The position numbers and the translations under genes were made by a program. This document shows positions 3,301 to 27,400 of a stretch of DNA of 53,556 nucleotides, one piece after another (the stretch's first letter is position 1; each line of letters begins with the position of its first letter). Source of the DNA: a virus (taxonomy: Duplodnaviria > Caudoviricetes); the IMG/VR virus record IMGVR_UViG_3300048838_000256, positions 1 to 53,556 of that record; one strand, given 5' to 3'. A model generated the notes under the pieces. The model worked only from the letters and a program-made list of their open reading frames with translations, was not told where the DNA came from and searched no databases.

Positions 3301-4304
3301 TGCAGGCCCTCCACGACGTGTTTGAGGCCCCTGTCGGACATGAGGTAGTCCAGGGTGCACTTCCAGCCTTCATGTCCACGCGCTCGGGGCGTCCTGCCCA
3401 TGAGGAAGTCGGACTCCCTGGCGCGGTCGAAGTAGGTGCGGAACCACGCGACGGCTTCGTCGTGGGTTGTGGCTCTGGGTCGTCCGTCGGAGAGCTTCGT
3501 CATGAACACCCACATCCACAGCTTGCGCATGCTGCGCTGGCGCTTCTCGTCCATGAGCCTGACGGCAGGGAGTTCCGGCAGAACCTCGTGGTAGGCCTTG
3601 ACGATCTCGTCGTAGCGGCAGGGAGGGATCTTCCTGGACGTGGCCCGGGGGGTCGACTGAGCCTGCGAAGTCGACGAGGCACCTTCAGGTGCCGGCTGGT
3701 CAGCATCGGTTTCCAGTTGAGAACCGTTCTCGCTACTGACCCCTACGAACGTAGTGAGTAGGGTATTAATCGGTTCCGGTGTCGTACTCACACCGTACTC
3801 ACGCGTTGGTAACGCGTTACATGATTCAGTGTTACGCGTTACATCGGCCTTCGTTCCTCGCTCTTTGGCGGCCGCCGCAGCGGCCTTCTTGGCGGCCTGG
3901 ACCTCGCGCCAGCGCGCAACGCGATCGGCGTCGCTGCGGCGCTGGGTCATCATTTCGACCACCATCTGAGTGATCGTCGGGTGGTACAGACGGCCGTCCG
4001 ACGCTTCGCACCAGCCACGGAGCAGAATCTCGCGGTACTCGGAAAACACCCGGCGAGGCAGCCCGATGCACCCGGCAAGTTCGCGGTCATCGGTGGGCAG
4101 CGATCCGCACGGCACCTGCTTCCAAGCGGCGTACCACGTGGCAAGCAGCAGGGGCCGCGCCAGCGGGAGGCCGTCCAGGGCCAAGCTGCCGGCCTCGTTC
4201 CATGTGCCAGACTGCTCGATGCGCTCGTAGTCCAGTTGGAACCGCCACCCCTTCGCCCGCACATCTGCGGGGTACGGCGGCTCCGGGCGCGCGTCCTCGG
4301 TCAC
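3297..4304 (-). CDS. Phage replication initiator (O-like)
   Basis: Immediately upstream of dnaB; N-terminus like YdaU/DUF1376 (QVPCGSLPTDDRELA..DGRLYHP); C-terminus AYHEVLPELP...FLMG...W...LDYLM; contains internal repeats; GTG start at 4304. Confidence 0.8.
   Translation of the reverse strand: MTEDARPEPPYPADVRAKGWRFQLDYERIEQSGTWNEAGSLALDGLPLARPLLLATWYAAWKQVPCGSLPTDDRELAGCIGLPRRVFSEYREILLRGWCEASDGRLYHPTITQMVVEMMTQRRSDADRVARWREVQAAKKAAAAAAKERGTKADVTRNTESCNALPTREYGVSTTPEPINTLLTTFVGVSSENGSQLETDADQPAPEGASSTSQAQSTPRATSRKIPPCRYDEIVKAYHEVLPELPAVRLMDEKRQRSMRKLWMWVFMTKLSDGRPRATTHDEAVAWFRTYFDRARESDFLMGRTPRARGHEGWKCTLDYLMSDRGLKHVVEGLQ
3760..3845. other. Putative replication origin (iterons inside the initiator gene)
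   Basis: CGTACTCAC x2 (3783, 3794), ACGCGTTACAT x2 (3812, 3834), palindrome GTAACGCGTTAC (3809-3820), AT-rich GTATTAAT; lambda-like position. Confidence 0.65.
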
Positions 4305-12468: not shown

Positions 12469-12777
12469 ATGGCCGGCCTGACGTTCACGCCCGAAGAACT
12501 CGTCGACCTGACGGAGTACGAGCAGCCCGCCCGGCAGATTGCCCTTCTGCACCGTCGCGGGTTCTGGCGGGCGTACATCGGCCGGCATGGGCGTGTCGTG
12601 CTGGAGCGAGCGCACTACGATGCGGTCTGCCGCGGGGAGGCCGCGGCACCGGACCGCACCCCGAAGGTGCGAGGACGCGCAGGAGTGCGTCGTGAAGAAA
12701 GACCCAGCCCTTCCACCAAGGGTGTTCCCGCACGGCCGCTGGTATCGCATCGCGGTGGCCAGGGGCAGCAAGCGTGA
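12469..12777 (+). CDS. xis: Excisionase-like protein (DUF4224 type)
   Basis: TPEELVDLT.Y..PARQ...L...G...GR.GR.V; directly upstream of and overlapping the integrase. Confidence 0.75.
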   Translation: MAGLTFTPEELVDLTEYEQPARQIALLHRRGFWRAYIGRHGRVVLERAHYDAVCRGEAAAPDRTPKVRGRAGVRREERPSPSTKGVPARPLVSHRGGQGQQA

Positions 12778-13780
12778 GTGGACGAACCTGTCCCTCGTGG
12801 CCGATGGCCTGCCTGCTCTGTGGCGGGCCTACCGCGCCTTCGACGCCGACCCGGCGCTGTACCTCATGCCCGCGCTCATCGCGGACTGGCAGGACCGCGT
12901 GCTCGCCGGCAAGGCGCCCAAGACCCGCGAGGACACCAACCGGATGCTGGTGTACGTGGCCGACGCCTTCGCGGAGTTCAAGCCCGACGAGATCACCCCG
13001 CCGCACTGCGTCGAGTTCCTGGCGGCCTGGTCGGGCAAGGCGCGCAGCTTCAACAAGTACCGCGCCCTGCTGCGCGAACTGTTTCGCTTCGCCATCGAGG
13101 TCGGCCAGCGCCCCGTGGGCACGAATCCCGTGGATGGCGTCATCCGCACCAAGGCCGAACGCCCGCGCCAGCGGTGCCCGACCACCAGCGAGATCCGCCG
13201 CGTCAAGCTCGGGTGCCTGTACGGCGCCAGCGGCGGCCGGCGCAGCCGCACGGTGCGCACGCGCTCTGGCCTGACCATGTGCGCGCTGATCGAGGTCGCC
13301 TACCTGACCGGCCAGGACATCGGCCGCATCATCGCCCTGCGCGAGACGGCCAGCGCCGACCCAAACGAGCCGTTCCTGACCCGCGAGGGCATCAGCTTCC
13401 GGCGCAGCAAGACCGGAGGCCGCGTCGTCATCGAGTGGACCCCCAGGCTGCAGGCGGCCATCGCGGCGCTGCGCCGCATCAAGGCCGAGCGCATGCTGCG
13501 CCAGCGGGCCGAGCAGCGCGTGGAGACGCCCTACCTGTTCACGATCCAGACGGGCGAGCCAATGACCTACGAGGCGGCATCGAACGCTTGGCAGCGGGGC
13601 ATGAAGCGCGCCCAGGTGCAGCACTTCATGCTGCGCGACATCCGCGCCCGCGCGCTGACCGACAAGGATGCCAAAGAAGGTCGCCGCGAGGCCCGGAAGA
13701 TGAGCACTCACACCACCGAGGGGCAGTTGACCGACTACCTTCGGAACCACAACCCTGCGACTACGAAGGCGACGGCATGA
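12692..13780 (+). CDS. int: Tyrosine integrase
   Basis: LPPRV arm domain, TNPV, YLTGQ, SKTG, RDIR, H...Y; AGGAG SD before GTG 12692; adjacent attP. Confidence 0.9.
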   Translation: MKKDPALPPRVFPHGRWYRIAVARGSKREWTNLSLVADGLPALWRAYRAFDADPALYLMPALIADWQDRVLAGKAPKTREDTNRMLVYVADAFAEFKPDEITPPHCVEFLAAWSGKARSFNKYRALLRELFRFAIEVGQRPVGTNPVDGVIRTKAERPRQRCPTTSEIRRVKLGCLYGASGGRRSRTVRTRSGLTMCALIEVAYLTGQDIGRIIALRETASADPNEPFLTREGISFRRSKTGGRVVIEWTPRLQAAIAALRRIKAERMLRQRAEQRVETPYLFTIQTGEPMTYEAASNAWQRGMKRAQVQHFMLRDIRARALTDKDAKEGRREARKMSTHTTEGQLTDYLRNHNPATTKATA

Positions 13781-15445: not shown

Positions 15446-18400
15446 TTCAGCTTCTCCCGCAGTTCCTCGGCCAGCTTGCGCTTCTTCTCCACGATGACGC
15501 GCAGCTTCTCGTCGCGCTCGTCCTCGTCGATGCGGCCGGTGGCGAACTGGCGCTTGATCTGCGCGGCCTCCCGGTCGAGGTCGGACTGCACGGCCATCGC
15601 GCGGGCGGCGGCATTTCGGCGCAGCACGTCCTCGGGGTAGCTGCCCAGCTTCACGCCAACCGACGACGCCAGGGCCTGCGTGGGGCTCATTTCCCGCCCG
15701 AAGGCGTCCGTGCGGCCCGTCATCGAGCCCACGACGCCCTCGGTGGCGTAGGTGCCCGGCACGCCGACGATGTTGGGCATGGCGGCCTTCCACAGGTGGT
15801 CGGCGGCCTTCTTCGCTTGCTCGGTCACGGTGTCGGTGTCGCGGTTGGAGATCTCCTTGCCGGTGAACATCGACTTGTTGGCGACGATCTCGCCCACGAC
15901 GGCCAGCGGGCCACCAGGCAGCAGTGCGGGCGGCACGGGGATGGCGGCGTTGCCCTGTCCCACGTCGAGCACGTCACCCACGGGGATCCAGCGCCGGATG
16001 TCGAGGTACACCGGAGAGCCGTGCTCGTCGTTCCACGGCATGCGGATCAGCTTGGGCACGATGCCCCACACCTTGCCGGCCTTCTCGTCGGGCAGCAGCT
16101 TGCGGGCGCGCTCTTCATCGTCGTCGCCGCCGCCGGCCAGCATGACGCCGATCGCGTTCAGCGCGCCGGCCATCGCCATGAGTTTGAGCAGCTTGTGCGG
16201 GCGCTTGCCGGCGATCTCCAGCAGCATCGGCACGGCACGGTAGGTGTAGCTGATGAACGGCCAGAACGAGGCCCGCATGTTGGCGACCCACGGGGCGTTG
16301 ATCGAGTAGTCGAGGAACGACCGGCGCGCGATCTTGCCGGCCTCGCTGTCGCTGGCGCCGCCCTCCTTGGCGCGTAGCCAGGCGGCGAGGCGGAACACGT
16401 CGTCCTCGGCCTGGTAGAGGTCGATCAGGTTCTTGCCGTCCTGCACGACCTTCTCGACCGGCTTGGAACCGCGCAGGGCCTCAAAGGCGGCCGGGAACTG
16501 GCCGTGCAGCATGGCCTGCAGCGCGGCATACGCGCCGACCTGGCCGCGGCCGGTGGCTGCCGCGGCGGCGTTGACCTCGGCCCGCAGGAGGTCGCGGATG
16601 CCGTCCATCGTGTCCTGGGCGATCTCCTGCGACACCCAGCCGCCGATCGAGCCGCCCGACGCCTCGTAGCGCTGCAGGATCTCGCGCGCGGCCTCGCGGT
16701 CGGCCGCGCCGATCGTCTTGCCGGCCAGGTTGCCGACGGCGCCGATCATCCCCTTGCCCTGCCCCTGGTGGGCGGCCAACAGGATCTGCATGCTCTTGGC
16801 GACGTGGCCGGCCGTGACGTCGTGCCAGTCGGCCATGACCACGTTCGACATGATGTTGTTCATGTGCACGGCCGGCGACAGCGCGGTCTTCGCGGTCTTC
16901 CACGCGGTCAGGATGGTCTGGTAGGTCTGCCCGAACGGCATGGGCCGGTTTCCGATCTGGCGCACGTCGTTCCAGATCGGGCCCGGCAGGTAGCGGCCCG
17001 CCAGGTCGCCGTAGCGCGGCACGCCGGTCCCGGGGATCTTCGTGTCCGGCACGCGGACCCACTCGCTCGGCTTGAACGTGTCCTTGTATCGCTCCGACGC
17101 CTCGACGACCGGCCCGCCCAGGTCCTCGCCCGGCTTCTTCGCCTGGGTCTGCGCAAGCCACTGCAGGTACTTGCCGACCTCGACGTCGTGCACCATGCCG
17201 CGCAGGGTGCGGGCGATGGCGTACCGCGCCTCGTCGATCTCGCCCATGCGCACGCGCTCGTCCTTCGTGAAGTCGCGCCACATCACCACGTCGGCGCCCT
17301 TCGTGTCGACAGCCTCCCACGTGCCGGCGTTCTCCCAGTCGGCGTACTTGGCGGGCCGGGGCTCGCCGGCCGGCCAGAAGTTGACCTCGAGAAGCCGGCC
17401 CGGCCGGCGCTCGGACTCCACGCCCGGCAGCGCCTCGACGCCCTCCCCGGCCGGCGCGCGGCGCTCGAAGCGGATGAAATTCTCGCCCTTGAGCGACGTG
17501 TCGGCCTTGCCGGCGACGTCCTTGCGCTTCCACCACTCGGGAGCGGCGGTCTGGATCTGCTTCATCGACGCCTGGCGCACCATGCCGCGGCCCTTGTACT
17601 GCTCGCCCAGGATGGCGATGGCCCGACCGCGGGTCTGCTTCTCGGCGGTCGTCAGGTCGGCCGCGTGCTTGAAGTAGGAGCGGCGCAGGTAGGCGAACCG
17701 GTGCCGGTCGCGCGCCTCGGGGTCCAGCTGCCCCAGCTTGACCGCCTCTTCGGAGAGCTTGTCGATCAGGTTGCGGACCTCGTGCAGCACCTTGACCGAC
17801 TCTGCCGGCAGTTCCTTCATGAGCTCGTCGGCCGTGCGCGTGTCCTCGCCGGACATCCACTCGTAGGCGACGCGCGACTCGGCGCGGGTCAGGGTGGCGA
17901 GCTTGTCGACCAGGGTGCCGGCCGACAGCAGCTGGCCGCGCAGCGAGCCCTGGAACTCGCCGCGGCGATCGAGCACGGCCTGGGGGATGCCGTAGTCGCT
18001 CACGGTGCCGGCCTTGACGACCTCGGGCACCAGGCGGTCCAGCAGCCGTCCGCCAAGCCCGTAGGCGACGCTGGCGACCCGGTCCAGGCCCGTGACCTTG
18101 GACGCGATGCGGAACGCGGCGTCCAGCGGCCTGGGCGTGCTGGCGCTGGCCTGGATGATGGCCTCGGCGCGGGCGGCGACGTCGGCGGCAGCCGGGTTGT
18201 AGGTGGCGCCCGGCTCGGCGGCGATGCGCGGCCGGACCTTGGCCGGCAGCGACTCGGCGCGCAGGTAGTCGAACGCGGGGCTGGTGTCGGCCGTGACGCG
18301 GGTGCGCCTGGACTGCGGCAGCACTTCGCCGCTCGACACGCGCAGCCTCTCGACCATGCTGACGGCGGCGCCGTCGGCGCCGACGTGGATGGCGTCCAGG

Positions 18401-21400
18401 GTCAGGCCGTAGGTCTGCAGGGCCTCCATCACGAGGCGGTCGCGCCCGACGGCGACGAACTTCGACGCGGTGTTGGCGAGCGCCAGGCGGCGCAGCGTGG
18501 CGGTCGCGGCGGCCACGCGGGCGCGCTTGTCGGCCGCGGTCTTGCCGTCCATGATGGACAGCGCGTCGGCCGGAACGGTCGTGATCGAGTGCACCCGATT
18601 CTGGTGCGACAGCGCCATGAGCGTGACGGAGCCGTCGTCGACCTGCAGGCGGCGGGCGACGTTCATCACGTCGGCCGGGCTGCCGATCTGCGTGCCGGCG
18701 AACTCGCCGCCACCCTCAAACGGCTCGGCGGCACCGAAGTCCTTGGACTCCAGGAGCGAAATGCCGTTGCTGTCGATCGTCGCGTACTGGTTCGTGTCGA
18801 TGACGACGTGCCCCATGAAGCGCATGTCGACCGGGTTGGTGCCGCCCATCTGCGTGCCGGCGCGACTGATCTGCTCGGCGTAGCGCGCAAAGTCCTCCGT
18901 GACGCGCTCGTCGGCCCGGCTGGGCGTCGCCACGCCCGCAGGGTGGTTGTGCATCAGCCACATGCGCTTGGCGCCTTGCGCGGCCGCGGTGCGCATCAGG
19001 CGCTCCATGTAGGCGAAGTAGTTGTTGCCCACGATGACGGCGGTCGAGCCTGGCAGCCGGCTGGTGATGCCGACCTGGGCGACGATGCGCCCGGTGCCAT
19101 CGGTGAAGAAGGCGCGGAACGTCTCGAACCGCGGATCGCGGTAGACCTGCGCCAGCGTGGCGAGTTGCTGCGGCGTGCTCGCTACTTGCCCGACGAGGCT
19201 GACCCGCTGCCGGGCAGCGAGACCACTCGACAGGGCTCGACCAAGTATGGTGTCGGTTCGTCGAAGTACGCGGAGTGCGTCCGCAGCTGCTCCGCGAGCC
19301 GCTTCGACAGCCGGTCCTGCCTGGCTTTCGTCAGGTCGAGCGGCTGCGAACAGGTCGAGCTGGGTGTTGAAGAGGTCGGCTTGTGCGCCATTCTTGAAGG
19401 CCCGGCGGCCCTGGGCCGCCATGAGCGCATTGTCGTCGATCGGATGCTTCGCGCGCCACTTCGCGGCCAGGCGGTCGAACACGTCGGGCTTGTCGGCCAG
19501 CAGCGCGTCGACGTCCTTGAAGCCCCGGGCCTTGGCCTCGGCCTGCAGCCAATCCTCCTGCGCCTCCAGATCCTGCGCGAGGGTCTTGCCGCCGTAGGTG
19601 GGCTCGGGGTCGCGCGTGATGTTGGCGTCGGCCGGGTCGAACGTGCCGCGGTTGCCGATGGCGGACTTGATTTGCTCTGGACGCAGCACCGCGTACACAT
19701 CGCCCTTGGCCTTGCCGTCCGTGCTGGCGCTGTCAACCACGTTGCGCACGATCATCCCGTCGTGACCATGCTCGCGCGCCCACTGCAGCGCGCCCTGCAC
19801 GCTGACGGCGTTGCTCGGCAGGTTGCCGAACACCTTGGGCTTCCACTCCTGCCAGGGAACCGGGATGTTGTCATTGCGCTTGCCCAGCGCGTCGATCACC
19901 AGTGGGTTCTGCATCGACAGGTAGGCTTCAACCACTTGGGGCCGCTTGCCGGGCGAGCGCCACATGCCCCGCTGCATGGTGTACTCGCTCGCCAGCGCCT
20001 GGCTGTTCGTGAAGAAGGCGCCGCTCTTGGCGTCGAACTGCGAGAAGCCGCCATTCGGCGTCCCGTGGTACACCACCAGCGGCCTGCCCTCGGCGTCCAC
20101 CACTTTCGACCCACCGAACCAGCGCTTGAACGCAGGCGTGTCGGTCTGGTCGCCGTACCGCGCGCCGGGGTCGCGCGCCAGCATTTCCGGCGACATCATC
20201 CCCGTCGCGGCGAGCGTCATCGCCTCTTCGATCTCGGCGTCGGTCGCCTCGGGCCCGGCGGCGATCGCGCGCTCCAGGTCGGTGATCTCGCGGCGCAGCG
20301 AGGCCAGCATGCCCACCATCGGCCACTCGGCATTCACGCGCGGGCGCAGGGCGTCGATCTCGGCCTCCAGTTGCGAGATCCGGTCGCGCAGCGTGGTCGG
20401 CGCCTTGGCGACCTCGGCCACGGCGTAGCCCGCGCGCCGCGCGATGCCGACGTCGTCGTCGTTGAGGTCGCGGAACAGCGTGGTGTCCCAGCGCCCGCCG
20501 GTCTGGATGTCGACCTGCCAGCCGTAGTCGGTGCCGTGCTTCCACGACACGAACCGCACCGGGAAGCCGCTGATGCTGCCGATGGTCTGCGACGGCTGCA
20601 CGGCGCTGGACAGATCCTTCGCGCGCGCCTTGAGCGCCTGCGCCCAGTCTGCGCGCTTGACGTAGCCCTTGCCGCCGGCCTCGGCCCGGAAGTTGTCCCC
20701 CGACAGGTCGACGACCTTGGACGCCGCCTCGACGGCCTTGGGCAGCAGGGCGCGCGACGCGGCGATCTCGAGCTCGGCCTTCTGCAGCTGCTCCCGGAAC
20801 CGCTGCTTCTGCGTCTCGTGCGCCTGGTACAGGCGGTCCAGGCGCTCGGCGTCGGCGCGCTTGCCGGCCAACTGCAGCACGCGCGGATCCTCGGCCAGCA
20901 TGCCGGCCGCCTGCTCGGCCATGCTCGCCTCGCTCAGGTCGTCGATCTCGCGCAGGTTGGGGTCGCCCGACAGCGCCTGGTCGATGAACCGCTGCTTCGA
21001 GGCCACCAGGCCCCACATCTGCTCGTCGTAGGTGCCCTTCGCGGCGTAGGCGTGGATGTTGACCGTCGGGTTCTTGTTGCCCTGGCGCACGATGCGCCCC
21101 TCGCGCTGCTCCACGTCGGCCGGGAACCAGGGGGTGTCCAGGTGGAACAGGTGCAGCAGGCGCTGCTGGGCGTTGACGCCCGTGCCCATGTTCTTGCTGC
21201 TGCCGATCATCACGCGGACCTTGCCCGAGTTCATGTCGCGGTACAGCTTGACCTTGTCGGCCGACTTCTTGTAGTCGCTCATCCAGGCGACTTGCGACGC
21301 GGGCACGCCGGCATCGCGCAGGCGCTTGTCGACCCAGGCGCGCGCGTCGAAGCCGCGGTTCCTCGCGGCGCCTGCGCCAAACCCCAGGTCGGCGAACACC

Positions 21401-24400
21401 ATCATCGTCGCGCCCTTGTGGGGCTCGACCTTGCCGGCCTTGTCGGTGAACTCCATGTCGGCCGACGCCTTGAACTGCTGGATCAGGCCGTCGACCATCT
21501 GGTTCAGCTTCGAGCCCGGGTCGCTCGGGGCATCCGGGTAGACGAAGCGCATGTCGATCGCGGCCAGCCGGCCGTCGCCGATGATCTTGATGATCGGATC
21601 GGGGTTGCTCTCACCCCAGAACGACGGCTTCCAATCGCGCGAGTCCTTGTAGCGCTGGGCCAGCACTTCGCGGTAGGCGCGGTAGTCGCGCGTGAGCGGC
21701 GTCACGACGATGCGCCGCGCGCCGCCGCGGACCTTGGGCCGCTTGTCGCCCAGGAACTGCGCCAGGGTGTCGGCCGTGAGCACGTCGGCGAACTCGCGGA
21801 ACATGGTCGTGAGCTCGCCCACGTTCACGAACTTCTTGAAGCGCGTGACCTGCTCGTACTTGCCCGCGGCATTGGCCTCCAGCGACGTCGACTCGCGGCC
21901 GAACTGCGCGGCCCAGGAATCGAAGTCCTCGATGCCGGCCGCCTCCATCTGCTGCCGGCCCAGGAAGCGCTGGACGGTGTACATCTCGCCCATCGTGTTC
22001 GTCAGCGGCGTGCCCGAGAGCATGACCAGGGACCGGCCCGGGTTCTTCTCGTCGAGGTAGCGCGACGCCCAGTACATGCTCATCGACAGCTGCGAGCCCT
22101 CGGTCGTGATGCCCTTGACCTGGCGCGACGTGTTGATGTCGAGCTTGCGCGCGACGTGCGCCTCGTCGACGTACATCATGTCGACGCCCATTTCGTCGAG
22201 GCGGACGCTCTTGTCCTTGCCTTCGCCCAGCATGGTGGCGGCGAGCTTTTCCTCCAGGCGCTGCAGCCTGGCCTCCATGCGCTTGACGGTCTGAGAGCCC
22301 TTCTTCTTGCCCGTCTCGGCCTCGTCGTCGGCCACCTGCTGCTCGATCGCGGCGCGGAGCTCGACGATCTGCTCGGTCATCATCCGGGTCTTGAACGCCG
22401 GATCCAGGTCGAGCTTCTTGAACGCGTCGTGCGTGATGATGATGCCGTCGAGGTCGTTCAGCGCGGCGCGCGCGATGAAGCGGCGCCGGTTGTCGCCGGT
22501 GAAGTTGGCCTCGTCGGCGACCATCAGCTTGGCGGCCGGGTACAGCTGCAGCCACTCGCGTTGCCACTGGCCCAGCATGTGATTGGGCACGACGAAAATG
22601 GGCTTCTTGATGAGGCCCAGGCGGCGCTGCTCCATCGCGGAGATCACGGCCGCCCAGGTCTTGCCCGACCCGACGGCGTGCGCCAGGTAGGTGTTGCCCG
22701 ACTGGATGATCCGCCACGCGCCGCGCTTGACGTGGTCGAACACGTCGATCAGCCGGCTCGACCCGGGCATCGTCAGGTGCCGGCCATCGAACGCGCGCCC
22801 GATCGTGGTGTTGAACTTGTCGTTGTACAGGCCGATCAGGCGCGTCGTGCGCTCGGCGTCGCGCCACACCCAGGACGCGAACTCGTCGTGCAGGGCGTTG
22901 AGCTTGGCGGCGGCAGCCTCGGTCGCGGCCTTGTCGAGTTGCTTCGTCGCGTCCTTCCCGCTGCCCACGGTCTTGTAGACCTTGACCTTGCGGCCCGTCA
23001 GCGCGTGGTCCAGGAGCTCGCCCGCGTGGCGGTCGTAGGTGCCCCAGTCGGTCGTGGCCTTGGTCGGGCGGTTGCCCGCGACCCGCTCCTTGTAGCGGAT
23101 GCTCCACTTGCGCGTCGTCTCGTTGAACGACACGCGCGCGTCGACCTCGGCCGTCTCGCGCAGGAACTGCTCGTAGACGTCCGACGGGATCCAGTTCATG
23201 CCCATGCGGATGTTCACGTCCGCGGGCGACCGGCCTGGCGGCTGCACAGCCTCCAGGGCGGCGACGTTGCGCTCGTAGCGGCGGTCGCCCTTGGCGGCCT
23301 CGCGCGCCTCGGCGAGCTTGAGCTTCACGTTGCCCGACAGGTAGGCGTCAGCCGTCTCCCAAGCCTGGCCCTGCGGGTTCTGGTAGACCGCGGCGCCCAG
23401 CGCCTCGGCGGCCTCGGTCTCGGTGATGTCCAGGCGCGCGGCGATCTCCGGCATGTCGATGCGGCCCAGGTCGGCCAGCGTCGTCATCATCGCGTCGTGC
23501 GGCGCGGCGATCGTGGGCTCGGGTTTGCCGCCGAGCACGCGCTCGGACAGCGACTTGCCGGGCTTGACGTCGCCGGTTTCCTCGTTCACGTCCTCCAGGG
23601 CCGCGACCAGGGTGTAGTCGGGGTCGTCGGCCAGGCGGTTCAGCAGCGGGTAGACGCGCGTCTCGACCTCGTCCTGCTCCTTGACCATGACGGGGTTGCC
23701 GTCCTCGTCCTCGACGACGTTGCCGTCCGCGTCGACCTGCTCGACCTCGACCGCGACCTTGCGGCGCTGCACGGTCGACTGGTTAAGCAGGCCGTGCTTC
23801 TTCGTGAAGGCGGCATAGGCGGCCTGCAGCGCCTTGAGGCTGGCCTCCCAGTCGCCGCCGTTCAGCTGGTCGTGCTGCGCCTGCTTGAGCGCGTCGCGCA
23901 GCGGCACGTAGTCGGTCAGCAGGACAATGTCGTCCCGGGTCTTGCCCTCGACGGCCTTGGCCGCGCGTTTGGGCTTCTCGACGACGGCCTGGCCCAGCCC
24001 GCCCTCGCGCTGCATCAGCACGCCGGCGTCGGAGAGGTAGAAGCCACCCTCCTTGCGCGCCTTCGGGTTGAAGTCCACGTCTCGGACCTGCGCGGCCTGG
24101 GCGGCGCTGCCGGCCGGTGGCGCGAACACGTCGGCCGGCATGCGCTCGACCGCGGCGCGGAACAGGTCGCCGATGTCGCCGGCCGGCGCGGTGACGGTGT
24201 ACTCGCGCGCGGCACGCATGCTGCCGGTGGCCGCGTGCGCGCCCAGCACCATGTCGGGGTGCGCGTCGAAGTATTCGTTGACCGTGGCCTGCACGTCCGG
24301 CAGGGCCTTGCCGTCCTCGTCCACGCCGCCGCTGACCATCAACGGCTTGCCGTCGGCGTCAAACACGGGCTTCGTGCCCGCCCACGCCTGGCCGGCGTCG

Positions 24401-27400
24401 AACGTCTCGCCGGGCACCTTCTTGCGCAGGAACAGCACGTCGGTCACGACCTCGGTGCCGGCGTTGTCCTTGAACGCGGTCTGCGGCAGCCGGATGGCGC
24501 CCAGCAGGTCGGCGCGCTCGGCCATGAAGGCGCGTGCGCTGTCGTCCTGCTTGTCCATCGTGAAGCGGCTGGTGACGAACATCAGCAGGCCGCCCGGCCG
24601 CACCCGGTCGAGGGTCTTGGCGAAGAAGTAGTCGTGCAGCTTGAACGCGCGCCTGCGGTACTCCGGGTCGGACAGGACCGCGAACCCGGCGAATGGCGGG
24701 TTGCCGATGCCGACGTCGTAGAAGTCCTTGGGCAGCTTCGAGTCCATGAACGACTCGACGCGCACGTTCTCGTCGGGGAACAGGTGGCCCAGGATGGCGC
24801 CGGTGATCGAGTCGTACTCGATGCCGGTGTAGGCCGTGTTGGCGGCCAGGTTCTCGGGCATCAGGCCCGGGAAGTTCCCTTTGCCGCCGCCAGGCTCCAG
24901 CACCAGGCCACCCTTGAACCCGAAGCGTTCCAGGGCGCCCCACATGCCGCGCACGATGGGCGCCGACGTGTAGTGCCCGTACTGGGTCGAGCGCGAGGCT
25001 TCAGCCCATTCCTCGGGCGTCAGCGCGGCCTTGAGGCGGTCGCGCAGCGCCAGCCAGCGGCGCATGGCCGGCGCCGGGCCCGCCTTCTTGACCTGGTCGG
25101 CAGTGATCTCGGTCAGGTCGTTCCACGACAGCTTGGGGTCGGCCTTGCGCAGTACCTCGAAGGCATCGAACCAGCCGTCCGGCGTGCCGCCGTAGCGCGC
25201 CCAGCGGTCGCGGCGCAGCGTGCCGCCAGCCTTGTCGACGGCGGCCAGCGCGCGATCGAACGCCGGCAGCATGGCCTTGACCTTGTTGAGCTTGTCGCCG
25301 AAGAGGTTGTTGGCGATCTCGCTGGCGCCCCAGCCGACGAACTTGGCGAGCGTGGCCTGCTCTTCGCGCGTGGCCTTGCGGTTCTCGGCGGCCAGCGCCT
25401 TGACGAGCTCGACCGCCTCGACGTTCCACTCGGCGCGCTTGGCCCAGGAGCCGGGCGGACTGATGTCCGCATCGGTGAAGCGGTAGTTCAGCCCTGACTT
25501 GGGGCGGATCGTTCGTCCGGCAGGCTCTCCACCGCCTGCGCGAGCGCGACCTCGCGGGCGCTCTGGTCCGCGTTGTTCATCGCTTGCACCTTCTGCAGGT
25601 ACGGCAGCCCCTTGGCCGTCGCCTGCGAGTTCGCCCGCGCCGACGCCGTCACCGCGGCCTGGTTGACCGGGTCCGCGACCCCCCGCAGGTACGCCAGCCG
25701 CTCGCCCTTGGCGGCCAGATCCTCCCGGAACTTCGGCGCCCGCTCCTGCAGGGCCTTGTCCAGCGTTTCCATCAGCAGGGTCAGTGCCATCGCGGCCTCC
25801 TTCGTTGTCCCGATTATCGCTCGTCGCAGAGTTCTGCGATAAAATGGAGTCCGAAGGAGGTGACGAAGTGAAAGTCCCAGACAGGTTCCCGGAAGGCTCC
25901 AAGTTCTTCGAGTCTGACTCGGGCATGCTGGCCGTGCTGATCCCGTCCGAAGGCCCCTTCAACCTGGTCGGCGGCGAGCTGGTCAAGGCGCGGCGCTGGC
26001 CGCCGTCTTCGGAGGCGATGCCCTTGTCAGAAGCCTCCTGGCGCAAGCTGGCCGCGGCCGAAGCGGCGCCATAGAACACACGCTGCGCGGCGATGACCTC
26101 AAGCGCAGCATCCGACCCGGCCGGCATCACGCGCTCGATGTCGTACAGCTTGTGGCCCTGGCCCTCCTTGGCCGCGATCATTTCCGGGATGTTGATGAGG
26201 ATTTCGGCCTCGATGCCGCCGATCTTCACGTTGACCAACACGTCGCCGTAGCCGGAGCCCAGCAGGCCCGGGTCGCCGGTCAGGTCAGGCGCTTTCAGCG
26301 AGGCCGGCGTGCGGTTCTTGACCCGGCCCGGCGAAACCTCGAACCGCTTGTAGATCGTGTCCAGCACGCGTTGCGCGTCGGCGTAGCTGGAGACGACGAT
26401 CGTCGAGCGCAGCAGGTCGCGCATCTTGTCGGCCTGCATCCCGTTGTCCAGCACCAGCTTCTCGGCGCTTCGCCCGATGCTCTTGATCGGCGCCAGCAGG
26501 TAGCCGATCGCGCCGCTGACGCGAGCGATCTCGGCCACCTTGTCGTCGAACACAGGCTTCTGGTCGTTGGCGGTCTGCAACATCGGCGCCATCAGCGCCT
26601 CGGCCTGGGCGCGCTCTTCCGCGGTGATCGTCTGCTTCGGCGCATCGCCCGTCTGCAGCCGCTGCACGTCGGCCTTGGCCTGCGCGATCGCGTCGGCGGG
26701 CAGGTGCTCGGCCTCCTTGAAGTCCGTGATCTGCATGAGGCTCGCAGAAGGAGCCGGGGCGGCCGGTTGCGCAGCCGGCGCCCCGGCAAACAGGTCGCCC
26801 TGCACGGCGTCGGTCGCCGCGGCCTCGTCGTCGAAAAGGCCGCGCTGCGCGCCGCCCTGCTCCACCTTGCGCAGCGCCTCCTGGGCGGCCTGGCGGTACT
26901 GCTCGGTACTGACCTTGTTCCAGTGCTTGCGGGTCTTCGGGTCGGCTTTCAGCTGCTGACGCACCCAAGCGGTCAACCGCTTGAGGTCCGTGCCGATGAG
27001 CTTGATGCCCTTCTCGCACAGGTTGACGAGGATCTTCTGCAGGTCCGGCGCCTTCTCGCCAACCAGGGCCGCGCGCTGGTGGCGCGTCAGGAAGTCGCCC
27101 AGGTCGGCCAAGGCGTCCTTGAAGTCCTGCACGGCGGCGCGGCGCGGATCCGCCGCGCTCTCGCCCGACGTCGTGGTGCTCGGGAAGGCGTGAATGGCCT
27201 CCAGCACCTGCTCGGCCGGCGCGTTGAATCGCAGCGCGCGCAGCGTGTCGCCCTTGACCCGCTGGGCCAGCCAGCGGTGATGCCCGTCGATCACGTAGCC
27301 GTCAGCCGAAACCAGCGCCGTCGCGGTGTCGCCGGCGGCCTCCATCGCGCGCTTCGTCTTCTTGCGCGAGAACTCGGCCTGGGTCGGCTTGAGCGAGGCC

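Follow-up and report, generated by a model that had tools for sequence, protein, structure and literature searches.

A Tas1-like domain inside a giant phage polyvalent protein and its probable Tis1-type immunity gene nested on the opposite strand

Can a single stretch of phage DNA encode, on one strand, a toxin-like domain of a giant protein and, on the other, the small protein that would neutralise it? This question is raised by a viral sequence of 53,556 nt (IMG/VR record IMGVR_UViG_3300048838_000256, Duplodnaviria, Caudoviricetes; positions 1 to 53,556, analysed as a whole and called the window hereafter), in which one giant open reading frame (ORF) carries motifs of the RelA/SpoT type and is overlapped, directly behind them, by a 68-aa ORF on the opposite strand. 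The original prediction, made from the sequence alone, took the two for a toxin and its immunity protein embedded in a polyprotein. Our analyses support this proposal in silico, through the likeness of the domain to the toxin Tas1, the linkage of the two elements, a weak fold match of the small protein to the immunity protein Tis1 and a predicted interface between the two. The antisense small ORF is a real and conserved gene linked to a Tas1-like domain. We consider it probable, from sequence comparison and structural modelling, that this domain is a Tas1/Apk1-like toxin domain of a polyvalent protein and that the nested gene encodes a Tis1-type immunity protein within a double-coding linker.

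The small ORF lies wholly inside the giant one and has the 68 aa plus stop codon and the translation originally described; its start codon in the window is GTG, not ATG. The Shine-Dalgarno site (AAGGAGGTGA) and the upstream, -10-like TAAAAT that had been claimed for it are both present at the positions listed in Table 1. From 25868 to about 25990, the third codon positions of the two frames coincide and the guanine-plus-cytosine contents (GC) of the first and second positions (GC1 and GC2) are swapped, so that across approximately 25870-25990 the pattern of the giant frame gives way to that of the plus strand (GC1 > GC2). The translation of the giant frame opposite the small ORF is, as had been noticed, rich in Ser, Thr and Pro, and also in Gly. 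Across 30 loci, this stretch when translated in the host frame contains 19% Ser and almost no Val, Phe or Trp, and the small-frame translation has a globular composition with 9.3% Phe. For the same DNA, the small frame shows a slightly higher identity than the host frame (0.459 vs. 0.420) and a slightly higher BLOSUM62 score per site (2.08 vs. 1.70). Between the window and its closest relative, the small protein is 74% identical, and its start and ribosome site are kept. The AlphaFold2 (AF2) model of the small protein consists of five strands and a C-terminal helix, with a predicted local distance difference test (pLDDT) score of 87, and its fold is therefore considered confident.

Table 1. 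Coordinates in the window of the features discussed in the text (a dot marks a feature without strand).
Feature	Position	Strand	Basis
Nested antisense gene, 68-aa Tis1-like candidate immunity protein, GTG start	25868-26074	+	Translation, family, AF2
Expression signals of the small gene: TAAAAT (25840-25845) and ribosome site AAGGAGGTGA (25854-25863)	25840-25863	+	Sequence
Tas1/Apk1-like RelA-SpoT-fold pyrophosphokinase (toxSAS-like) domain, giant residues ~1150-1335	26044-26598	-	Profile, AF2, Foldseek
EIL replacing the family EIQ (Gln to Leu) in the catalytic beta-strand motif	26125-26133 (approximate codon positions)	-	Alignments A6, A8
Host gene, polyvalent (DarB-like) phage protein, 4868 aa	15442-30048	-	ORF list, Pfam
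Second nested gene, TnpV-like, 100 aa, out of the host frame, ATG start with GGAGG ribosome site	25488-25790	-	GC at third codon positions, homologues
Intergenic-like spacer, 77 nt between the nested starts	25791-25867	.	GC, periodicity, inverted repeats

The small protein belongs to a family whose members, typically of ~75 aa, share the motif M-K-V-P-D-K-F-P-x-G-C-x-F, two beta-hairpins, P-x-S-E-A-x-F and a short helix. A profile built from four sequences was run on 183 candidates, of which 49 matched at E ≤ 0.01; nearly all of these are unnamed proteins of 64-91 aa. A 39-sequence profile searched against 1.84 billion representatives retrieved 89 at E ≤ 1e-3, 42 of which reached E ≤ 1e-10; about two-thirds of these 89 are small full-length proteins, and the long rows matching in multiple stretches look like repeat proteins that match part of the profile. 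Three members are free-standing, without a giant ORF and without a Tas1-like match, namely L008 354-701 (+), L016 1425-1661 (+) and L017 3783-4019 (+). The first lies between an upstream winged-helix-like gene and a downstream Rha-like gene, and the other two share a different context, near a transporter gene; these copies could be orphan immunity genes in prophages. Sequence searches with the small protein gave no match in Pfam, PHROGs, NCBIfam or the PDB sequences, the only rows of the family search in PDB being chance-level matches to LpxC (E ~0.25), and the ESM Atlas yielded no usable match. In the GenBank phage collection, tblastn with the small ORF, P0014 or the Tas1-like domain as query found nothing. 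Of two scans of genome contigs, the first returned nothing and the second a single 1.5-kb contig from a metagenome-assembled genome.

The presence of an open antisense frame is not in itself informative here. Opposite the giant gene runs another open frame, 16504-25497 (+), of 2997 aa, whose third positions coincide with those of the giant frame and which looks like an ordinary shadow ORF of high-GC DNA; therefore, ORF length alone carries no information in this genome. In addition, the small frame would be open by chance with a mean probability of 0.64 per locus, given the host protein. The idea that the small ORF is such a chance shadow of a high-GC gene must be set against the free-standing occurrence of family members outside any giant ORF, the conservation of starts, ribosome sites and -10-like elements (see below), the 49 and 89 database members, the confident fold and the switch of codon-position GC to the plus-strand pattern, and we judge it refuted.

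A search led by the small ORF retrieved 3 distinct viral contigs and 10 metagenome loci, 12 of which have enough flanking sequence (L013, which ends 39 nt past the ORF, is left out). In nine of the 12 (L001, L003, L004, L009, L010, L011, L012, L014 and L015), the small ORF is immediately flanked by a Tas1-like domain on the other strand, and the remaining three are the free-standing copies mentioned above. A search led by the domain gave 40 viral loci, and in 32 of them the hidden Markov model (HMM) of the small family matches the opposite strand. These 32 nested loci, which represent 27 distinct small-protein sequences, share the same arrangement: the match, which starts 120-250 nt past the domain, shares 7-82 nt with the 3' end of the latter. 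The start codon is ATG in 29 loci, TTG in 1 and GTG in 1; in L045, the profile match starts 30 nt 3' of an ATG with a ribosome site, an offset that results from duplication of the N-terminal motif. Ahead of the start lie GGAG-type ribosome sites, at 5-10 nt, and a TAcAaT-type hexamer, at ~20-25 nt and often with TG just upstream. Polyvalent genes with a RelA-type domain thus do keep an antisense ORF with a Shine-Dalgarno site at this place, which the original prediction had proposed as a check, and the small gene travels with the domain. The N-terminal K-x-P-D-K-F-P motif of the small protein is present as a tandem duplicate in L045 and L046.

The association does not depend on what follows it in the giant protein. 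The domain encoded after the cassette is a methylase-helicase in the window, a ParB-like domain in L004 and another domain in L003, and the Tas1-like domain and the small ORF remain paired across these three loci despite the differing downstream domain.

The eight loci without an HMM match contain the most distant Tas1-like domains, and in four of them the host protein is of ~1080 aa and not giant. In seven of the eight (L049, L050, L051, L053, L054, L055 and L056), an antisense ORF of 57-88 aa occupies the same place and shows a similar hydrophobic pattern and a P-I/V-x-x-x-E-F end; the eighth locus, L057, is not counted. The match of these look-alikes to the main small family by hhalign (E 0.001, probability 21%, 61 columns) is weak and no more than suggestive of a relationship. 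In L051, L053, L055 and L056, the Tas1-like domain ends a protein of ~1080 aa, the antisense small ORF (MKSSK..EFLDVEG..) lies in the last 400 nt, at ~3534-3800 on the minus strand of the locus, and the next gene begins at the host stop codon.

The same upstream signals could be read in terms of RNA. The conserved -10-like element faces into the giant gene and no terminator-like site was found after the small ORF, so transcription from the nested promoter could enter the toxin-domain region in antisense orientation; the main product would then be a transcript that tunes the giant gene, with the peptide being secondary. We regard this as very improbable, since start codon, ribosome site and amino-acid sequence are conserved over the 27 distinct sequences, the fold of the small protein is confident and free-standing copies exist without a giant gene to regulate. 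An antisense effect of this kind would in any case be compatible with, and not exclusive of, a nested immunity gene.

What, then, is the domain that the small gene accompanies? The RelA/SpoT motifs originally claimed in the giant frame were all found (PIKSIGRSAEKLVL, RDLLRSTIVV, GYGDVLVNV, IEAEILIN and GHKLYDIER) and occupy giant residues ~1187-1306, corresponding to window positions ~26490-26130. Using a profile of seven homologous domains (A6), the best match in PDB was Tas1 (6ox6_A; E 6.4e-18, profile positions 39-212 on chain residues 256-437), followed by the exported alarmone synthetase SaSAS with E 0.11. The AF2 model of the domain (pLDDT 94.5) presents the synthetase fold, with a central beta-sheet framed by helices. 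Foldseek again placed 6ox6_A first (E 4.5e-8, template modelling scores 0.65/0.67), and its 57 PDB matches at E ≤ 1e-3 continue with SaEAS, SAS1/2, RelP, Rel, SpoT and CapRel. The fold is therefore of the RelA/SpoT type, as had been predicted, and the nearest toxin, by profile as well as by structure, is Tas1. Searching viral contigs with the single sequence of the Tas1-like domain retrieved nothing.

At 26026-26074, one stretch of bases encodes two helices, one per strand: the C-terminal helix of the small protein, formed by its residues 55-66, and the final helix of the domain model, formed by residues 171-199 of the modelled 200-aa segment. Both helices are Ala-rich, and nowhere is the DNA better conserved between the window and L001.

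In an alignment of 30 rows, the residues K47, K55, D69, R72, K102, Y125, D127, E140, N144, H157 and R164 are invariant, and all are present in the window. The motifs that we take to be expected in the catalytic site are a Lys/Arg in the first motif, Asp, Tyr, Glu-x-Gln and His-x-x-Tyr. It had been pointed out that the usual ExQ motif reads EIL in the window, and this holds: Gln142 is nearly invariant in the family (at least 90% of the 30 rows), the exceptions being the window and its closest relative (L001/L018), both with EAEILIN. The passages of PMC12691689 that were searched contain nothing on the role of this conserved Gln.

This substitution raises the possibility that the pair in the window phage is a relic, in which the exchange of Gln for Leu inactivated the enzyme and the small gene persists by inertia, or as an orphan-type protection against toxins injected by other phages. 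Such a view would account for EIL in place of EIQ in both the window and its closest relative, and it is in line with the orphan copies found elsewhere. We nevertheless regard it as improbable. The ratio of nonsynonymous to synonymous substitution rates (dN/dS) of the domain between these two Leu-bearing phages is 0.22 (170 non-overlapped codons), which means that purifying selection acts on the domain regardless of its precise chemistry. The remaining invariant positions are all retained, and the start, the ribosome site and the 74% identity of the small ORF are kept between the same two phages.

In an exhaustive comparison of the small-protein model with 48,161 representative chains, the first rank was taken by Tis1 (6ox6_B; Z 4.8, root-mean-square deviation 4.1 Å, 59 of 68 residues aligned), in agreement with the immunity-like nature proposed for the antisense gene, although the match is weak. 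The weight of this result lies in a coincidence, since the top-ranking chain belongs to the partner of Tas1, the toxin that the adjacent domain itself resembles; the Z value alone is weak.

Modelling the two proteins as a complex, which had been suggested together with the original prediction, placed the small protein over the catalytic cleft of the domain. The complex score was 0.87 (0.88, 0.84 and 0.87 in individual runs) and the best of three controls reached 0.01. In the calibration, 58 of 80 solved complexes attained the 0.87 mark, as did 2 of 110 mismatched pairs; the prediction used our own alignments (30 and 39 rows), and the calibration thus holds only roughly. The runs share at least 97% of their contacts, with a partner pLDDT of at least 90. 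On the domain side, the predicted interface includes the invariant K55, D69, K102, R104, Y125, E140 and R164; on the side of the small protein, it comprises residues 15-20, 42-47 and 49-57, the last being the conserved P-x-S-E-A-x-W stretch. Passages of PMC11782079 describe Tis1-type antitoxins as inhibiting (pp)pApp synthetases by occluding the acceptor-nucleotide site, where a conserved Tyr contacts the acceptor base.

Several observations weigh against a Tas1-Tis1-type pair and must be interpreted together with the above. Regarding the immunity protein, the structural match to Tis1 is weak: the second rank has a Z of 4.7, and values below 8 can reflect a common arrangement. Foldseek found nothing for the small protein in PDB at E ≤ 1e-3. 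Profiles A5 and A9 showed no sequence similarity to Tis1 when searched against all PDB sequences (E ≤ 10), and for this reason the small protein is described here as Tis1-like in fold and role and not as a demonstrated homologue. The complex score may partly reflect the memory that the model has of 6OX6; therefore, it shows likeness to Tas1-Tis1, not binding. The free-standing copy L008 adjoins a Rha-like gene in a 2-kb contig without a Tas1-like domain, so the protein can also occur where no toxin lies in cis. Regarding the enzyme, the activity of the window domain may be altered or lost because Leu replaces the nearly invariant Gln. Its match to the Pfam RelA_SpoT model (PF04607) is of 14 bits (E 0.063), below the cut-off of 27; weak matches were obtained in six of the seven profile members, the best with E 2e-4, and we read the sub-threshold score as that of a divergent branch outside the coverage of the Pfam model, without exclusion from the fold. 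Regarding expression and coding, a simple sigma-70 scan found neither a full -35/-10 promoter for the small ORF nor a terminator 3' of it, a query for RNA data sets covering window positions 24800-27200 returned none, and codon-position diversity within the small ORF (0.420 at position 1 and 0.421 at position 2) does not discriminate between the frames.

The small gene has a second neighbour on its other side. Outside 25488-25868, the sliding codon-position GC of the host frame is regular, with a third-position GC (GC3) of ~0.93 and GC1 > GC2. Within 25488-25790, GC3 is 0.93-1.00 in the frame of the TnpV-like ORF, and that of the host frame drops to 0.37-0.60. In between, the spacer 25791-25867 has a GC of 0.54-0.57 and no codon periodicity. 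Codon-position GC thus changes three times, and this pattern reveals two divergent small genes around a 77-nt spacer inside the giant ORF. Across them, the giant frame reads as Gly/Arg/Pro-rich and Ser/Thr/Pro-rich text.

Homologues of the TnpV-like ORF were found in the same place in L001, L004/L015 and L013 (tblastn of the window ORF against L013, E 8.7e-7). The L004 homologue matches Pfam TnpV (PF14198) with E 3.6e-6 and 27.3 bits, for a cut-off of 27, and the window ORF itself has no Pfam match at E ≤ 10. An HMM of four sequences detected the TnpV-like ORF in 20 of 40 viral loci, in each case as a short separate frame that is located on the host strand and diverges from the small ORF; a single-sequence search of viral contigs with the 100-aa ORF returned nothing. 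Its stop codon overlaps the first residues of the methylase-helicase module. A -1 frameshift joining it to this module was considered, and no slippery heptamer was seen by eye. Substitutions between the window and L001 in the region of the 100-aa ORF (35, 37 and 33 of 96 sites at codon positions 1-3) are uninformative. The spacer contains an imperfect palindrome with 25-nt arms (25796-25820 / 25836-25860, 76% complementary; the right arm passes the spacer end) and a central perfect 7-nt pair (25824-25830 / 25833-25839, TCGCAGA..TCTGCGA). Judging from this symmetry, which is not seen in L001, the palindrome could be an operator.

These neighbours are relevant to another interpretation, in which the small protein is real and conserved and is not an inhibitor of the domain, being instead a small regulator or a moron-type gene (for example, acting on the TnpV-like gene or on lysogeny) lodged in a tolerant linker. 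The regulatory-looking prophage context of the free-standing L008 copy (winged-helix-like and Rha-like neighbours), the divergent pairing with the TnpV-like gene in 20 of 40 loci, the operator-like spacer and the weakness of the Tis1 fold match would all fit such a role. It is difficult to reconcile with a position that is constant in 32 of 40 loci, immediately after the Tas1-like domain and irrespective of the next domain, with a best structural match that is precisely the cognate immunity protein of the toxin that the domain resembles, and with a complex score of 0.87 (vs. 0.01 for the control) for an interface predicted on catalytic residues. Moreover, the small protein matches no DNA-binding family. 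We therefore consider a non-inhibitory role rather improbable, and favour a nested immunity gene.

The collapse of codon-position GC in the giant frame at 25488-25868 raises the question of whether the giant ORF is in fact two genes plus a cassette. The host frame is stop-free across the small ORF in all 29 distinct nested loci, in which the small frame is open too, and it is open across the whole 5-7 kb locus in the 32 nested loci; no host-frame stop occurs in the spacer of any locus, or in the TnpV-like ORF of those that have one. In a read-through test, the small protein was kept fixed and its synonymous codons were resampled according to the codon usage of each locus, and a reverse test was done likewise. 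The resampled chance of an open host frame has a mean of 0.40 per locus (log10 sum -13.8) and that of an open small frame, given the host protein, a mean of 0.64 (log10 sum -7.0), with a resampled probability of 1.0 in three loci. The summed log10 values overstate the evidence because the loci are related and not independent; the direction is clear, and both frames are kept open. Two genes split by a cassette were therefore rejected, as no locus has a host-frame stop and the resampling speaks against it. We conclude that the polyvalent protein is in all likelihood made as one chain, with the stretch over the nested genes serving as a disordered linker, because a host frame that is stop-free everywhere is unlikely by resampling.

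The carrier of this arrangement belongs to a virus with a GC of ~68% and a match to a P22-like portal (E 8.7e-148). The giant protein has Pfam matches to ddrB-ParB, an Eco57I-type methylase, SNF2, ResIII, Helicase_C, ART-PolyVal and RadC; ddrB-ParB and ART-PolyVal exceed their cut-offs and the others score lower. Judged by this domain content, the product of the 4868-aa ORF is a DarB-like cargo protein that fits the description of polyvalent proteins by Iyer et al. 2017 (PMC5512222), an assignment made because many unrelated conflict-type domains share one phage polypeptide. A candidate integrase ORF at 12539-13780 (+) matches Phage_int_M with 25 bits; the cut-off is 27, and the phage is for this reason considered likely, and not established, to be temperate. 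DNA searches against phages and plasmids gave a short conserved methylase stretch as their sole match.

Together, these observations suggest the following mechanism. The Tas1/Apk1-like pyrophosphokinase domain, carried in a polyvalent protein of a phage of the P22-portal type, would be, by its likeness to Tas1, a (p)ppApp-synthesising and ATP-depleting toxin. The linker right after the domain would be double-coding: its opposite strand would encode the 68-aa protein of the Tis1 immunity type, composed of a beta-sheet and a helix, and its host frame over the nested gene would be only a disordered Ser-rich linker, free of stops because the giant protein must be read as one chain. The small protein would bind the toxin domain 1:1 across the catalytic cleft, on the acceptor-nucleotide side, and silence it. 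Since its own promoter would drive the small gene, the immunity protein could be made independently of the giant gene, be it in a cell that produces phage, in a lysogen or upon entry of the DNA. That the domain makes (p)ppApp and is toxic, and that the small protein neutralises it by direct binding, is what we infer by analogy with Tas1-Tis1. DarB is packaged in the virion, and by the same kind of analogy the giant protein may be packaged and enter the cell with the DNA.

A further step is tentative and, in our estimation, unlikely as a whole. The nested gene could be a built-in off-switch: the injected domain would deliver a short ATP-depleting and (p)ppApp-producing pulse that stalls host defences, and the Tis1-like protein, expressed immediately from its own promoter on the incoming DNA, would then stop the domain and allow phage replication. 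Expressed in lysogens, or as an orphan of the L008 type in other prophages, the same gene would protect cells against injected toxins of this class. The toxin domain and its antisense antidote, often accompanied by the TnpV-like gene, would be a self-contained module that recombines in frame from one polyvalent gene to another.

If the pair is what it appears to be, it has implications beyond this locus. Bacteria and phages have few long antisense overlaps of coding sequences, and such cases are frequently met with doubt; the present one combines many diverged relatives, free-standing homologues, a confident fold and a predicted partner encoded in the host gene. It illustrates how a toxin module inside a single giant polypeptide can keep its cognate antidote adjacent, and how ordinary gene callers hide a small gene under a giant ORF. 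It also points to alarmone-type toxins as injected cargo under phage control, and to orphan prophage immunity genes as a possible layer of phage-phage competition. For the field of toxic small alarmone synthetases (toxSAS), a large, uncultured and phage-borne Tas1-like branch is added, together with a very divergent Tis1-like partner.

Parts of this picture are already in print: RelA/SpoT domains in phage polyvalent proteins are mentioned in passages of PMC5512222, and Tas1-Tis1 and Tis1-like antitoxins in passages of PMC12691689 and PMC11782079. We found no report, in the literature outside supplementary files, of an immunity gene nested antisense in a toxin-bearing or polyvalent gene.

The closest known system is the Tas1 (Apk1)-Tis1 pair of the type VI secretion system of Pseudomonas aeruginosa (PDB 6OX6; described in passages of PMC11782079 and PMC12691689). 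Tas1 is the nearest solved relative of the phage domain by profile and fold, and Tis1 is the best structural match of the small protein and is similar in size (76 residues in the Tis1 chain vs. 68 aa). As with Tis1 in the relevant passages of PMC11782079, the interface predicted for the phage protein covers the catalytic cleft and the conserved Tyr. In contrast to Tis1, the phage protein shows no detectable sequence similarity to it, and its gene is nested antisense in the toxin-bearing gene, whereas the Tis1 gene is a separate neighbour. The phage toxin is likewise a module in the middle of a 4868-aa protein instead of a secreted effector, and in the window it has Leu for the conserved Gln.

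FaRel/AT2faRel, in the passages of PMC11782079 that describe it, is similar in that a (pp)pApp-type synthetase is neutralised by a Tis1-like domain at the acceptor site, a mode of neutralisation which is proposed there as a general rule. It differs in being a chromosomal tricistronic toxin-antitoxin operon with genes on the same strand, with no phage cargo and no overlapping coding in those passages. Apk2, in turn, is an alarmone-synthetase toxin that a phage carries as part of a virion or cargo protein, together with the cognate immunity gene (passages of PMC12691689); according to a figure legend of that work, however, the immunity gene is located at the apk2 locus and is not nested, and the carrier is a MuF and not a polyvalent protein. 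The RelA/SpoT-containing polyvalent proteins of Iyer et al. 2017 (PMC5512222) are, from the passages concerned, of the same kind as the host protein studied here, with ddrB-ParB, methylase, SNF2 and ART modules, and embody the same idea of an alarmone-type enzyme delivered with the DNA. The words "antisense" and "TnpV" are absent from that text, and its passages on these proteins mention no immunity partner or nested gene.

Finally, antisense overlapping genes in prokaryotes and viruses, the subject of the reviews PMC7457138 and PMC8227390, share with the present locus the production of two proteins from opposite strands. What sets the phage locus apart is that homologues of the nested gene exist as free-standing genes, that its product has a predicted fold and that its putative partner is encoded in its own host gene. 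The nested gene looks more like a captured gene that was placed in a tolerant linker than like the product of de novo overprinting.

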